This document shows positions 23,754-28,201 of a stretch of DNA of 64,000 nucleotides, piece by piece; the first letter of the stretch is position 1; each line of letters opens with the position of its first letter. Under the pieces are notes generated by a model. That model worked only from the letters and a program-made list of their open reading frames with translations, had not been told where the DNA came from and searched no databases. The position numbers and the translations under genes were made by a program. This DNA comes from an uncultured delta proteobacterium (lineage in GTDB: Bacteria; Desulfobacterota; Binatia; UBA9968). Location of the stretch: contig CAVYTU010000013.1 of the NCBI GenBank assembly GCA_963771465.1, positions 320,001-384,000 on the forward strand, read 5' to 3'.

Positions 23754-24515
23754 TTGCCGGGTATTCAAGGACTGGTCGGCGGCAGTTTTCATTTTAGCCA
23801 AATCCTCGGCCAAGGCGCCGGCGCGATCCTGCGCGGTTTGCCGCTAAAGATTTCAATGGTCTTCGACACCCGCCCGCTCAACTGGCTTTACGCCAGTAAG
23901 AACATCAAAACGATTCAAGAACTCAGAGGCGGCAAACAGGTCGCGGTGTCAAGCTTCGGCGCAGCGCTCGATCAAATGACCCGCGAGTTGCTCGCGAAAC
24001 ACGGCGTCGATCCCCAGCGCGATGTAGTCCTACGCGCTATCGAACCGACGCCCAATCGGCTCGCCGCATTGCTGACCGGCGTCGTCGACGCCAGCGTGCT
24101 CAATCAGCTCGACCGTTTGATCGCCAAGAAGAATGGCTTCAACGAGCTGCTCTTTTACGGCGACGATCTGGAGTTCGTTACCGCCGGCATCGTCGTGGCG
24201 GAAAAAACGCTGACGCAAAACCCGGAAATGGTGCGTCGCTTTGTGCGCGGCACCTTGCGCGGTTTTCACTGGCTCAAGTCGAGCGTGGCGCGCTTTGCGG
24301 CGGCGATGAAGGTCAGCGAAAGCGAAGCCACCGATGTTTACAAGGCTGCTCTCCGGGTCATGTCCACGGACGGCACAATAGCGGCCGGCCTGCAGGAAAA
24401 AATGATCGCCCTCCAGCGCCGCTCGCTCAAGGTCGAGCGCGACGTCCTACCCGAGCAAGTCTATGACTTCACGATTGTCCGTGCCATCAATGATGAATTA
24501 CGCAAAAATCGCTGA
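23754..24515 (+). pseudogene. NitT/TauT (NMT1-like) solute-binding protein, apparently 5'-truncated
   Basis: VAVSSFGA, HGVDPQRDV, RLAALLTGVVDA; no signal peptide or N-terminal lobe segment. Confidence 0.6.
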
Positions 24516-24609: not shown

Positions 24610-24638
24610 TTGACTTGACACCGGGCATCACCGATACT
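24610..24638 (+). promoter_or_regulatory. Candidate sigma70 promoter of the amidase-actin operon
   Basis: TTGACT-N17-GATACT, ending 37 bp before the amidase ATG. Confidence 0.4.
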
Positions 24639-24675: not shown

Positions 24676-25683
24676 ATGGCGACGGTCGACGAAACCAAGT
24701 CTCGGCTCCTGCGTGGAGTGGTGCAGGATAATATCGATGTGCTGCAAAACGTTAAGGCGCGGCGCCTTAACCGGCGCAAGCGATCTGTCCATCCGTGGAT
24801 TCTCGCTGGCTTGCTGTTGGCGCTAGGCGCCTACGTAATTCAACCCGCATTGCTAGTTTCCACTGCGCCGACGCCCGCTGGCAGCTCCGTCGCGTTGGCA
24901 ACCAGCGCCGTAACGCCGACCGACATCGACCTGACCCCGGAATTGTCCGCGCCGCTGACTAATCCTCGGCCCATCGACCGCGCAGCGATACCGCTCGCGA
25001 TCAAGCGAATCGTCATCGATCCGGGCCACGGCGGCGAGCCCGGCGCAATGTCCGAGTCCGGCGTCGCGGAAAAGGAAATTACTCTGGACGTGGCGCTGCG
25101 GTTGCGCCGTTTGATGGCCCATGATCCCTATGAAGTCCTGCTCACGCGCGAAACCGACCGTCTGATGTCCCTCGACAAGCGCGTCAACTTCGCCAACCAG
25201 CGCAAGGCCGATCTGTTCGTGTCAATCCATGCAAATTGGATGGAGCCGAAAACCATCCGCGCCTTGGAAACTTACTACATCGGACCCACCGACGATCCGG
25301 CGACATTGAAGTTGGCGAGCATGGAAAATAAGGGCTCCGGCTATTCGCTGTCGGATTACAAACAAATTCTTGAGAAAATTTATGTCGATGCCAGACACGA
25401 CGAGTCGCGCGCGCTGGCGAAATCAATTCAGACTAAGCTTTTTCGCTCGCTCAAACTGGTCAATCCCGTGCTCGAGAACCGCGGCGTCAAAACCGCGCCG
25501 TTCGTCGTACTGATCGGCACACAGATGCCCGCTATTTTGGTGGAGATCGCCTGCTTATCCAATGAGGATGAGGTTAAGTTGTTGACAAAAGAGGATTATC
25601 GCGAAAATATCGCCCTGGCTTTGGTGCAGGGCATCCGCAGCTACGCGGCGAGCCTCAATGCACCTAACAGGAAAGGCAGTTAA
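24676..25683 (+). CDS. N-acetylmuramoyl-L-alanine amidase (Amidase_3) with N-terminal membrane anchor
   Basis: IVIDPGHGG, EKEITL, FVSIHAN, PAILVEIACLSN; hydrophobic WILAGLLLALGAYVI after a basic stretch. Confidence 0.93.
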   Translation: MATVDETKSRLLRGVVQDNIDVLQNVKARRLNRRKRSVHPWILAGLLLALGAYVIQPALLVSTAPTPAGSSVALATSAVTPTDIDLTPELSAPLTNPRPIDRAAIPLAIKRIVIDPGHGGEPGAMSESGVAEKEITLDVALRLRRLMAHDPYEVLLTRETDRLMSLDKRVNFANQRKADLFVSIHANWMEPKTIRALETYYIGPTDDPATLKLASMENKGSGYSLSDYKQILEKIYVDARHDESRALAKSIQTKLFRSLKLVNPVLENRGVKTAPFVVLIGTQMPAILVEIACLSNEDEVKLLTKEDYRENIALALVQGIRSYAASLNAPNRKGS

Positions 25684-25686
25684 CTC

Positions 25687-26718
25687 ATGGAAGAAACCAA
25701 TGAAACCCTCTGTGTCGGCATCGATCTCGGCACTTCGCGCAGTTCTATTTCCGCATCCAATGGTCAGCGTCACGTCGTCGACAGCTACGTCGGCTGGCCG
25801 GTGGACATGGTGGCGCGCAAGCTGGTCAAAAAAACCGTCCTGGTCGGCCGCGATGCGCTCGACAACCGGTCGATGCTCGACCTGCGCCGGCCGCTTGAGC
25901 GCGGCGTGATGAAAGAAGGTTCGGAAAAAGATCAAGAAGCGGTGCAAGAAATTCTCCGTCATCTGATCGATGTCGCCGGTATCAAACAGAAGGGCAAGGG
26001 TAAAACCAAAGTGCGCGCCGTGGTGGGTGTGCCGGCCGAAGCGTTCCGCGTCAGCCGGCAAAACTTGCGCAACACCATGGAAGGCATCGCCGACAGTGTG
26101 ATGTTGGTTTCCGAACCCTTCGCCGTGGCGTATGGGCTAGAGGCGCTGCTGCACGCGCTGGTGATCGATATCGGCGCCGGCACCGCCGATTTTTGCGTCA
26201 TGCAGGGCCGCTATCCGACCGAAGAGGATCAACGGACGCTGCCCAATGCCGGTGATTCCATTGACGAACAGCTAACAAAACTCATTTCGGAGCGACATCC
26301 GGAAGCGCAGTTTTCGATCCACATGATTCGCGAGTGGAAGGAACGGTGGAGCTTTGTCGGCGAGCCTAAAAGCCGCGTCGTGGTCAGCGCGCCGGTGAAG
26401 GGGAAGCCGACCGAACTCGACATCACCGACGAGATGCGTACCGCCTGCGAGAGCATATTGTCGCCGGTTTGCGAAACTGCCGTGGATTTGCTTTCCAAGG
26501 TCGAACCGGAGTTCCAGGACAAGGTGCGGAACAACATCATACTTGCCGGTGGCACGTCGCTGATTTCGGGCTTTGCCGAGGTGATCCAGAAATCGCTTAT
26601 GGAATTCGGCGGCGGCCGCGCCGTGGTGGTCAAAGATCCTGTGTTCGCCGGCTCTGACGGCAGTCTCGCCATCGCGCGCGATGCGTCGAGCGCAGATTGG
26701 GAGAAACTCTCACTATAA
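25687..26718 (+). CDS. mamK: MamK-family actin-like ATPase (MamK-like; magnetosome role not implied)
   Basis: GIDLGTS, VVGVPA, VSEPFAVAYGL, IDIGAGTADFC, ERHPE, WSFVG, GKP, NIILAGG, KDPVFAG..W match magnetosome MamK as I recall it, more than MreB. Confidence 0.85.
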   Translation: MEETNETLCVGIDLGTSRSSISASNGQRHVVDSYVGWPVDMVARKLVKKTVLVGRDALDNRSMLDLRRPLERGVMKEGSEKDQEAVQEILRHLIDVAGIKQKGKGKTKVRAVVGVPAEAFRVSRQNLRNTMEGIADSVMLVSEPFAVAYGLEALLHALVIDIGAGTADFCVMQGRYPTEEDQRTLPNAGDSIDEQLTKLISERHPEAQFSIHMIREWKERWSFVGEPKSRVVVSAPVKGKPTELDITDEMRTACESILSPVCETAVDLLSKVEPEFQDKVRNNIILAGGTSLISGFAEVIQKSLMEFGGGRAVVVKDPVFAGSDGSLAIARDASSADWEKLSL

Positions 26719-26815
26719 TTCGTCGTCGCCGTGGGATCACTCGAACTGCAATTGCGGCAACTCGACGCGCCGATGAATTGGGGCGCTTGAATCATCGAGA
26801 ACCGACGCAGTCACT

Positions 26816-27124
26816 ATGGAAGAATTGATTCCCGATCTGGTCATTTTCATTGCTGGCACCGCCGTGGGGATGCTAATTGCATTAATCGTTCCCGGTCTCT
26901 CCGCCACCGAGAAGAAAACCAGCGAGCTAGTTGCCGCGCGCCGGCGCATGCTTGCCGATATCAAAGAGAAACACCACGAGGAGATTCTCGATCAAGCATT
27001 TCGCACCACCGAAGCGATCCGTGGCGAGCTCGACAAGTCAGTGACCACCTTGCGCAAAACTTTGGATGCCGTGCTGCCGTCCGGTTCAGATCATCCGAGC
27101 GGGCAGAGGAAACCCGCTGGTTAA
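26816..27124 (+). CDS. Small single-pass membrane protein with predicted helical/coiled-coil C-terminus
   Basis: LVIFIAGTAVGMLIALIVP followed by a charged helical segment; co-oriented with the actin gene. Confidence 0.7.
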   Translation: MEELIPDLVIFIAGTAVGMLIALIVPGLSATEKKTSELVAARRRMLADIKEKHHEEILDQAFRTTEAIRGELDKSVTTLRKTLDAVLPSGSDHPSGQRKPAG

Positions 27125-27274
27125 TTTTCTCGACCCCTGAAGCCGAATTGATCCCTATCACCGTTGGGCGCGTACTGAGCAAAGTTGTCCGATGAGAACT
27201 CAACAATTGGCAGGGAAATCACTGCGAATGAAGGAGTGTTGGCAGCCACGTTTGTGCTGCTGCCGCTAAAACAT

Positions 27275-28201
27275 ATGGCTGAAGATGTCATTAAGCTTGG
27301 GTTGTTCAATCAGGACGCGGCGATCATCGCGGCGAACAAAAAGGGCTTTCTCAAACAAGAAAACATCCAGGTCGAGATCAACACGGTCACCGACTCGCCG
27401 ACTTTGCTGCGCAATTTGATCAGCGGCCGATATGACCTGATCTTAAACAACGCCGACAACGTCATTGCCTGGGCCGAAGGCCAGGGCGAGGACCCGCAGA
27501 AAAACGATTTTGTGATTTTTCTCGGCGGCAGCCAAGGAGTCGATCAAAAGCTTGTCGTCGCCCCGGGAATTAACGACTACCAAGACATCAAAGGCAAACT
27601 CTTGGCCGCCGACGCCGTCACCACCGGTTACGCCGTTGTCGCCATGGCCATCTTAAAGAAATATGGATTGCTATGGAATCGCGACTACACCATGAAATCT
27701 TTCGGCAACACCACGGCGCGCGCCGACGCCATGAGCCGCGGCGATGCCGCCGGCGCTATGATGAGCATGCCCACTGAAGAAATCCAGAAACGAGGATTCA
27801 AAGTTCTCGCCGAAGCGAAAGATCATGTTAAACACTACGCCCGCGGACTCGGCGCCACCCGCCGCGAATGGGCTAATGCAAATGAAGATCTGGTGGTGCG
27901 CTTCACCCGCGCCCTGATCCGCGCCACCGACTGGCTGCAAGACGCCAAGAATAAAGACGAGGCCATCGAACTGCTGCTCGGCGAAACCAATAGCAACAAA
28001 GCGCGCGCCGTGGCGATGTACGAATCGACGCTCAGCCCGACTATGGGTTTGACGGCGCGCAGCCGCATCGACATGGAAGGCATCCGCACGGTGATCGAGC
28101 TGCGCGAGACCGCCGGCCTGATGAAACCGCCGGTGCCAAAGCCGGAAAAGTACGTCGACGAGCGGTTCTATAGTAAAGCGCTGGCGACATTGGCGCGGTA
28201 A
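27275..28201 (+). CDS. NMT1/THI5-like solute-binding protein
   Basis: KKGFLKQENIQVE, DIKGKLLAADAVTTGYA, YVDERF; start uncertain (27185-27275). Confidence 0.85.
   Translation: MAEDVIKLGLFNQDAAIIAANKKGFLKQENIQVEINTVTDSPTLLRNLISGRYDLILNNADNVIAWAEGQGEDPQKNDFVIFLGGSQGVDQKLVVAPGINDYQDIKGKLLAADAVTTGYAVVAMAILKKYGLLWNRDYTMKSFGNTTARADAMSRGDAAGAMMSMPTEEIQKRGFKVLAEAKDHVKHYARGLGATRREWANANEDLVVRFTRALIRATDWLQDAKNKDEAIELLLGETNSNKARAVAMYESTLSPTMGLTARSRIDMEGIRTVIELRETAGLMKPPVPKPEKYVDERFYSKALATLAR

Follow-up and report, generated by a model that had tools for sequence, protein, structure and literature searches.

A conserved pairing of a membrane-anchored amidase with a MamK-like actin points to a possible, so far undescribed mechanism for directing cell-wall cleavage from the cytoplasm

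We analysed a 64,000-nucleotide (nt) stretch of DNA (hereafter the window) from an uncultured delta proteobacterium of the Binatia (assembly GCA_963771465.1, contig CAVYTU010000013.1, positions 320,001 to 384,000), in which two adjacent forward-strand genes encode a bitopic N-acetylmuramoyl-L-alanine amidase of 335 amino acids (aa; 24676-25683) and a MamK-like actin-fold ATPase of 343 aa (25687-26718). An earlier annotation made from the letters alone (the sequence-only reading) had described these genes and a third, smaller one behind them as an operon built around a MamK-type cytoskeleton that does not serve magnetosomes; the three same-strand open reading frames (ORFs) lie exactly where it had put them, and the actin gene does start 3 nt past the amidase stop (TAA at 25681-25683, ATG at 25687). 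Direct observations are the genes with their domains, a pairing and an amidase tail that are both conserved, the separate clade of the actin, the lack of magnetosome markers above cut-off and the presence of the sequence in soil RNA libraries. We are confident that a distinct, conserved amidase-actin module unrelated to magnetosomes exists, and we lean towards the fuller proposal that it is a two-gene module in which an actin filament steers the amidase by way of the amidase tail.

The anatomy of the amidase was read from an alignment of 25 amidases of several phyla together with an AlphaFold model. Its first 25 residues (24676..24750, forward strand) form a conserved tail, modelled as a helix at residues 3-23 and predicted to dock on the actin. 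The tail has the consensus x6-K-x-R-L-L-R-x-A-V-x-[D/E]-N, with M1 and N19 invariant and K8 and R13 present in at least 90% of the 25 sequences, and the same motif is seen in deep relatives whose actins are 47-54% identical to that of the window. The basic stretch RRLNRRKR precedes a transmembrane helix at approximately residues 40-61 (24793..24858, forward strand), which is supported by sequence, alignment and model (residues 40-55 are helical in the last of these), and a disordered Ala/Pro-rich linker then extends to approximately residue 101. Since the basic stretch lies ahead of the transmembrane helix, the positive-inside rule would place the N-terminus of the protein in the cytoplasm. 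The presence of a membrane-anchored peptidoglycan amidase next to the actin, as the sequence-only reading had it, is borne out by this transmembrane segment and by a strong match to Pfam Amidase_3 (E 2e-48, residues 112-321).

The catalytic domain covers approximately residues 111-328 (25006..25659, forward strand), as judged from Pfam, the alignment and structure matches. Residues H118, E132, H185 and E290 are invariant in the 25 amidases and, by their position relative to AmiC, are presumably the metal ligands and the catalytic Glu. An insert at approximately residues 205-245 contains the likewise invariant E217 and N218, and is modelled with helices at 208-217 and 225-235. The closest solved structures are those of Bartonella AmiB (3ne8), E. 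coli AmiA (8c2o) and AmiC (4bin), with which the alignment is continuous across the insert, whereas amidases that lack an insert (CwlV and LytH types) break the alignment near residue 202. The Foldseek ranking of the amidase model agrees with assignment to the AmiA/B/C type, with which the window amidase shares both catalytic domain and regulatory insert. No AMIN domain was detected in the amidase with Pfam, and the protein reaches none of the NCBIfam cut-offs for AmiA, AmiB and AmiC. In AmiB, the regulatory insert blocks the active site. Since the AmiA/B/C structures align through the insert, the window protein looks like an amidase of the cell-separation type with an auto-inhibitory insert, in which, unlike AmiB and AmiC with their AMIN domains, a membrane anchor and a cytoplasmic helix appear to have taken the place of that domain.

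The actin scored 377.6 bits against the NCBIfam MamK model (NF040964), 22 bits short of the cut-off of 400; for comparison, a representative close to the solved MamK scored 508 bits. Scores against NCBIfam BeeR (218.8 bits, cut-off 530) and against the NCBIfam/TIGRFAM MreB models (71.9 and 57.4 bits, cut-offs 293 and 365.75, respectively) were lower, and the broad Pfam model MreB_Mbl does match (84.3 bits). Structures of Magnetospirillum magneticum MamK (PDB 5ljw, 5jyg and 5ljv) align with the actin over its full length with an E value of 1e-75, compared with 2e-42 for BeeR and 2e-11 for MreB. Every motif that the sequence-only reading had listed as MamK-like is matched in this alignment, namely GIDLGTS, VSEPF.V.YGL, DIGAGT, ERHPE, SFVG.P, GKP, VKDP.F.G and a W near the end. 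The fold begins at approximately residue 7, and a disordered N-terminal domain of the BeeR type is absent. With the AlphaFold model as query, Foldseek ranked the MamK filament 5ljv first (TM-scores 0.82/0.86), followed by BeeR and then MreB. Residues D13, E143, D161, G163, G288 and G289, which belong to the nucleotide-binding motifs and include the catalytic Glu, are invariant in 25 aligned actins. By BLASTP the protein is 38-42% identical to twelve MamKs or MamK-type proteins bearing magnetotactic taxon names, and 28% identical to the genome's own MreB, which lies on another contig (C14). The view that the actin is not MreB therefore stands, given the gap between the MreB and MamK scores (71.9 versus 377.6 bits), the separate MreB in the genome, and neighbours that are an amidase and a small transmembrane protein. 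As a separate observation, several proteins of 700-1230 aa (P0137, P0140, P0142, P0144, P0160 and others) carry a MamK-like actin domain in their C-terminal 330 residues that is ~40-43% identical to the window actin, while their N-terminal 440-900 residues match no Pfam family.

We placed the actin in a quick maximum-likelihood tree of 114 rows, rooted on the genome's MreB. All 32 of the amidase-linked actins fell into one clade of 47 rows, with a value of 99 in the Shimodaira-Hasegawa-like approximate likelihood ratio test (SH-aLRT). The 12 named MamKs were all recovered in another clade (18 rows, SH-aLRT 88), which holds none of the 32 amidase-linked rows, and the 11 amidase-free control actins, again without exception, in a third (29 rows, SH-aLRT 92). 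A separate tree of 98 rows gave the same picture. The amidase-linked actins thus occupy a well-supported clade of their own and do not group with the named MamKs. Because it lies outside the clade of named MamKs, the window protein is, by sequence, a MamK-like actin of a separate subfamily and not MamK proper; of the earlier assignment to the MamK type, the likeness holds and the identity does not.

These data bear on the alternative that the gene is a true magnetosome mamK, either as a remnant or as part of a cluster located elsewhere in the genome. The full-length likeness to MamK structures and a score just 22 bits under the cut-off speak for it, as does the fact that some relatives exceed that cut-off. 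One of these, P0125, is annotated as 'MamK family actin-like protein [Nitrospira sp.]' and scores 425 bits; its nearest sequenced kin are the actins of loci L105-L108, which share 58-67% identity with it and are amidase-linked. Since P0125 passes the cut-off and its kin are amidase-linked, an annotation as 'MamK family' can mislead, as can reliance on mamK to recognise magnetotactic bacteria, and both will yield false positives from this clade. Against a magnetosome function stand the placement of all 12 named MamKs in a different clade, the recurrence of the same pair in hundreds of soil and sediment genomes in which the amidase is the only common neighbour, and the content of the host genome. 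The latter comprises 6.9 Mb in 19 contigs and is 99.4% complete and 6.3% contaminated. It was searched throughout for MamI, MamP, MamQ and MamO, whereas mamA, mamB, mamE, mamJ and mamM were not searched by name, and no magnetotactic genome was run as a positive control. No match to MamI was obtained in the host genome at the NCBIfam cut-off of 80 bits, a negative of uncalibrated sensitivity given that this model gave no match in any control genome either. The best scores for MamP, MamQ and MamO were 34, 81 and 81 bits, respectively (cut-offs 300, 250 and 800). Of these proteins, MamP contains a PDZ domain, MamQ resembles LemA and MamO is a protease of the trypsin type. Since the MamP, MamQ and MamO models also give matches below cut-off in many control genomes, the weak matches in the host were taken as generic relatives. 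For these four markers, then, the proposed genome-wide search for magnetosome genes returned nothing above cut-off, and the gene described here is the only MamK-like gene in the genome. We regard a magnetosome role as extremely unlikely.

The host genome additionally carries MreB and FtsA, making the MamK-like protein its third actin homolog. It likewise encodes a paralog with AMIN and Amidase_3 domains, so that the actin-linked amidase is an extra one, and seven genes with M23/LytM domains, the products of which could be a source of amidase activators.

A scan of one genome per species returned at least 581 relatives of the actin, and gene neighbourhoods were taken from the best 80 of these at least 581 (63-85% identical to the window actin), which lie in genomes labelled Candidatus Binatia, 'Rokubacteria'/Methylomirabilota and, for the most part, Acidobacteriota (Thermoanaerobaculia and Holophagales). 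In 77 of these best 80 loci an amidase lies directly upstream on the same strand, its aligned portion ending 3-214 nt ahead of the actin match; in the remaining 3 the actin is located less than 100 nt from a contig end. An amidase immediately upstream was likewise seen in 19 of 19 loci from the window's genus, and also in all 6 deeper relatives (47-59% identity), comprising L105 and L106 from the window's own phylum (52-54%), L107 and L108 (47-49%) and L109 (59%) from Acidobacteriota, and the metagenome contig L188 (49.7%). Since it recurs in every relative in which it could be assessed, this adjacency is far beyond chance, and the survey of homologs proposed with the sequence-only reading finds the linkage conserved across phyla. 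Clustering of the ORFs within 7 kb recovered the amidase in 78 of 81 loci and the actin in 81 of 81, while any other neighbour was found in 12 at most; genes downstream of the actin differ between lineages. The stop codon of the amidase and the start codon of the actin overlap in many lineages (as TAATG or ATGA). A fusion of the two proteins had been suspected from open frames of 666-728 aa; it was ruled out, as the junctions show the TAATG overlap and these frames arise by chance in G+C-rich DNA.

As a control we used 80 metagenome loci surrounding another clade of MamK-like actins, typified by P0130 and including the Verrucomicrobiota-labelled P0132, which are 38-47% identical to the window actin. 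In contrast to the loci above, an Amidase_3 homolog was found in 0 of 79 of these, 54 of which have at least 1100 nt of upstream sequence; the one exception, L188, is the locus with the actin most similar to that of the window. The actin is far better conserved than the amidase, with mean pairwise identities among the amidase-linked pairs of 68% (actin), 55% (catalytic domain of the amidase), 40.8% (tail) and 18.6% (linker). Pairwise identities of actin and amidase were correlated (Pearson 0.82, a value reached in 0 of 2000 permutations), indicating that the two genes travel together. The P0130-like clade has a conserved upstream gene of its own, in the same orientation as the actin in 38 of 80 loci (for example L143:646-1560), the ~300-aa product of which has no Pfam family; each of the MamK-like clades may have a partner dedicated to it.

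We next consider how widely the module is distributed, counting actin matches at E 1e-100 or better. The actin was present in 132 of 201 genomes (at least 90% complete) of the class that contains the Thermoanaerobaculia-labelled genome, where it is single-copy and chromosomal, and in 32 of 401 genomes in an even sample of that acidobacterial phylum. Frequencies were 17 of 135 in the phylum of the 'Rokubacteria'-labelled genome and 3 of 301 in the sampled genomes of the window's own phylum; outside the window's genus the latter count was 2 of 300, both of the 52-54% type. Within the genus itself 21 of 24 genomes carry the actin, compared with 0 of 16 from other families of the same order. Since the pair is dominant in one class and patchy elsewhere, and since phylum labels are mixed in the tree, these sequence data suggest that the pair may have spread laterally between phyla.

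Patchiness of this kind might also be expected if the pair belonged to a mobile element or prophage, with an actin that segregates DNA in the manner of ParM or Alp proteins and an amidase that serves as lysin; some phage endolysins indeed share the Amidase_3 fold and appear at lower Foldseek ranks. The flanks, however, hold no phage, plasmid or mobile genes in common, the G+C content of the gene block is even with that of the surrounding DNA, and a single chromosomal copy in 132 of 201 genomes of one class is not what this explanation predicts. Moreover, the amidase is membrane-anchored and nearest to cell-division amidases, and the actin is MamK-like rather than ParM- or Alp-like. We therefore judge it very unlikely that the pair belongs to a mobile element or prophage.

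The two genes are closely coupled at their junction. The Shine-Dalgarno-like sequence AGGAAAGG (25669..25676, forward strand) lies within the codons for R-K-G at the end of the amidase gene, with 10 nt separating it from the actin ATG. The C-terminal residues K-G-S of the amidase are common across phyla in the alignment, and their conservation may in part reflect the ribosome-binding site, since those codons form AGGAAAGG. Logan contigs assembled from RNA libraries of soil, sediment and rhizosphere contain the sequence. Contigs that match the window without differences cover parts of all three genes, and runs X1-X4 leave other parts uncovered; the amidase-actin junction is bridged by contigs X1 (25343-25817) and X4 (25614-25784), which come from two studies. 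These contigs fit co-transcription of amidase and actin. In the 160-nt gap before the amidase a promoter-like site (TTGACT, 17 nt, GATACT; 24610..24638, forward strand) is a weak consensus match, and the number of such sites (2, compared with 1.2 expected from shuffled sequence) was not significant. A scan for terminators returned two sites only, both within coding sequences and fewer than in shuffled sequence.

Contact between the amidase tail and the actin was predicted in a single docking job, in which the actin and amidase residues 1-40 were each supplied with an alignment of 25 sequences. The interface score ipSAE was 0.83, 0.84 and 0.83 in three runs, while the best of three controls reached 0.01. 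The runs shared at least 97% of contacts, and the partner had a predicted local distance difference test (pLDDT) value of 72-73. In the calibration of the tool, an ipSAE at that mark was seen for 58 of the 80 solved complexes and for 2 of the 110 mismatched pairs, figures that apply only roughly here because our own alignments were used. In the model, tail residues 7-20 contact actin residues 124-128, 139-155, 174-176 and 329-341, which places the tail in the cleft that the VSEPFAVAYG helix and the C-terminal helix form between actin subdomains IA and IIA. Residues that the amidase-linked clade conserves and that differ in the two other clades occupy 4 of the 20 contact positions (R128, R175, A333 and D337) compared with 18 of 323 positions elsewhere, an enrichment (one-sided Fisher p 0.03) that lends weak support to the interface since the rows are related and not independent. 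In other actins, the IA/IIA cleft takes regulatory peptides and the neighbouring filament subunit. Taken together, these predictions make it likely that the tail binds the actin, and by analogy with ParR on ParM binding at a filament end is possible.

It could instead be that amidase and actin are co-regulated neighbours with related jobs, for example in division, that never touch, and that the tail serves another partner or membrane insertion. Gene order alone is no proof of binding, the predicted contact exists in silico, and the basic stretch in the tail is typical of topology signals in membrane proteins. However, the conserved part of the tail is the helix at residues 3-23, which lies N-terminal to the basic stretch, and the pair is kept with overlapping stop and start codons across phyla while its surroundings change. 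A docking score of 0.83 against 0.01 in controls, together with clade-specific residues in the predicted cleft, further argues for contact. On this evidence we consider the absence of any contact unlikely.

The mechanism that we propose for the two-gene module is as follows. The amidase, followed by a translationally coupled and dedicated MamK-like actin, is held in the membrane by an anchor and carries a conserved 25-residue cytoplasmic helix where other amidases have a signal peptide and an AMIN domain. The actin would polymerise in the cytoplasm, and the amidase tail would dock in the hydrophobic cleft between its subdomains IA and IIA. In this way the filament would set the position of the amidase in the envelope, and possibly the timing of its release from auto-inhibition, such that wall cleavage comes under control from the cytoplasmic side. 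The most likely setting would be the separation of daughter cells or a local remodelling of the wall, although we assign any specific cellular role only tentatively. A non-magnetosome, MamK-type cytoskeleton coupled to wall hydrolysis, the core of the sequence-only reading, thus remains the best-supported account, given that the actin is not MreB, that the amidase linkage is conserved and that four magnetosome markers score below cut-off; the roles in budding, appendages or organelle insertion that had been suggested along with it gained no support.

The direction of control might also be reversed: the amidase would mainly anchor the filament to membrane and cell wall, and the filament would carry some other cargo or act purely mechanically on shape or on the organisation of the membrane. 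Tethering to the membrane is a general requirement of bacterial actins, as exemplified by the amphipathic helix of FtsA, by MreB, and by MamK with MamJ and MamY, and a design of tail, transmembrane segment and linker would suit a tether as well. Nevertheless, the presumed metal ligands and catalytic Glu of the amidase are invariant and its regulatory insert is conserved, which indicates that amidase activity is under selection, and the neighbourhoods contain no second conserved partner gene. We find this alternative quite unlikely.

Several considerations weigh against our proposal of an actin that steers the amidase. Polymerisation, physical contact and cellular role are inferred, and the contact depends on one structure-prediction job in silico with the modest interface enrichment given above. 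The AlphaFold models are of moderate quality: that of the actin has a pLDDT of 75.5 with residues 35-79 below 50, and that of the amidase a pLDDT of 76 with a tail of low confidence when folded alone. Because the cleft also serves filament contacts, the tail might bind only filament ends or monomers. In the tree, 15 of the 47 rows in the amidase-linked clade are unlabelled representatives, the linkage being established for the other 32; the root is set by a single long branch, that of MreB, and the labelled MamKs do not include those of magnetotactic groups that branch deeply; the MamI negative is, as noted, uncalibrated. The RNA contigs are compatible with a single transcript but carry no information on where transcripts end, and DNA may be present in RNA libraries; the promoter-like sites are not significantly more frequent than in shuffled sequence. 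Finally, the actin was not found in 69 of the 201 class genomes at the same completeness of at least 90%, nor in 3 of the 24 genus genomes, one of them 99% complete, and two genus genomes have a partial or split match (G007:C4:7129-7503, residues 1-125, and G018:C43:369836-370691, overlapping pieces) that may represent decayed copies or assembly errors. The module is dispensable.

Comparison with known systems places the proposal among both actins and amidase switches. The window actin has the fold of MamK, aligns with it over the full length and shares its ATPase motifs, including the catalytic Glu in VSEPF; it differs from MamK in its score below cut-off, its clade, the lack of magnetosome context, a constant partner that is an amidase rather than Mam proteins, and the clade-specific IA/IIA cleft. 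Short partner peptides or small domains that dock on bacterial actins have precedents. ParR binds ParM in the cleft between IA and IIA, and FtsN is bitopic, its cytoplasmic N-terminal tail binding FtsA. MreBH guides LytE, a wall hydrolase of Bacillus subtilis, but LytE is secreted and the link indirect. A solved complex of MreB with its partner RodZ is available (2wus). The module differs from all four of these in that the partner predicted to dock is the wall hydrolase itself, is encoded in the same two-gene unit, and meets an actin that is seemingly dedicated to it. With regard to amidase control, AmiB bound to the LytM domain of EnvC is the subject of PDB entry 8c0j, according to its title. 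The module would resemble the FtsEX-EnvC/NlpD system in that a cytoplasmic ATPase would control a periplasmic amidase, and would differ from it in that the presumed controller is an actin and not an ABC transporter. FtsEX is such a cytoplasmic ATPase, exerting its control across the membrane.

A bolder version of the mechanism would treat the amidase as the cargo of a cytomotive filament, with the tail at one filament end as ParR is on ParM, growth or treadmilling carrying the amidase along the membrane, and engagement relieving auto-inhibition. We consider this version doubtful. If true, one actin would do the work of the AMIN targeting domain as well as that of the FtsEX-EnvC switch, and the module would provide the first cytoskeletal polymer that directly moves and gates a peptidoglycan hydrolase, as a mainstream trait of the Thermoanaerobaculia.

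How wall-cutting enzymes are placed and timed is a central open question in division and shape. Known solutions are periplasmic targeting domains and the FtsEX-EnvC/NlpD switch, and the module described here suggests a third and simpler one, in which an actin filament would hold the enzyme by a cytoplasmic tail; it consists of two parts only, and is common in one acidobacterial class and found in several other soil phyla. A full-text literature search, which mostly did not extend to subscription journals or to supplements, found no paper that pairs a MamK-like actin with an amidase or describes this clade, and to that extent the claim of an undescribed system stands. MamK and amidase are named together in just two papers, one apparently on an insect transcriptome and one that mentions them in unconnected passages. 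Filament-forming precedents outside magnetotactic bacteria do exist, namely BeeR of Verrucomicrobiota, a MamK-like actin that shares 25-30% identity with MamK and carries a disordered domain at its N-terminus (PMC11929497), saltatorellin/salactin, a MamK-like actin of Saltatorellota (10.1101/817700), and the mamK homologue of Thiomargarita, which adjoins a flotillin-like gene (10.1101/2022.04.11.487978). The relevant passages of these three accounts mention no amidase partner. The clade may be shown, unnamed, in the supplementary trees on BeeR and saltatorellin.

The third gene of the block encodes a protein of 102 aa (26816-27124, forward strand) with a single hydrophobic segment at residues 3-31 by Kyte-Doolittle, predicted to be an N-terminal transmembrane segment, and a C-terminal part that is helical and charged. 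Neither Pfam nor NCBIfam yielded a family for it above noise, and an Atlas search returned scores of only 0.77-0.79, inside the range of shuffled proteins. A tblastn match lies downstream of the actin in 17 of 19 genus loci (2 of which are weak or partial); of the 80 loci in other genomes, just 3, all from close relatives, have one. The small membrane protein is thus present as originally described and falls outside the conserved core, being either a lineage-specific accessory or an unrelated neighbour.

A number of minor observations concern relatives of the pair. Unlabelled representatives within the amidase-linked clade include a divergent group of 7 sequences (P0250 and others). In seven loci labelled Thermoanaerobaculia (L038, L041, L043, L055, L057, L063 and L101) the gene after the actin encodes a protein of ~675 aa, alike at its start in all of them, which, judging by its first residues, may be a DNA ligase. 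The genome of locus L034 (G344) holds two actin copies, C807:2343-3368 and C23:5862-6890, which are 77% and 75% identical to that of the window, respectively, and could reflect a real duplication or a mixed bin.

The genes that flank the block in the window serve metabolism and transport and, as had been stated, are unrelated to it. They encode UbiD, an OCD/mu-crystallin (ornithine cyclodeaminase-type) protein, an isochorismatase, an amidohydrolase, two NMT1-like binding proteins, one solute-binding protein (SBP) and one transporter of the major facilitator superfamily (MFS). The genes for the NMT1-like substrate-binding proteins lie on either side of the three-gene block (23754-24515 and 27185-28201), a similar binding protein is encoded downstream in a relative (L024), and the block may represent an insertion into a transporter region.

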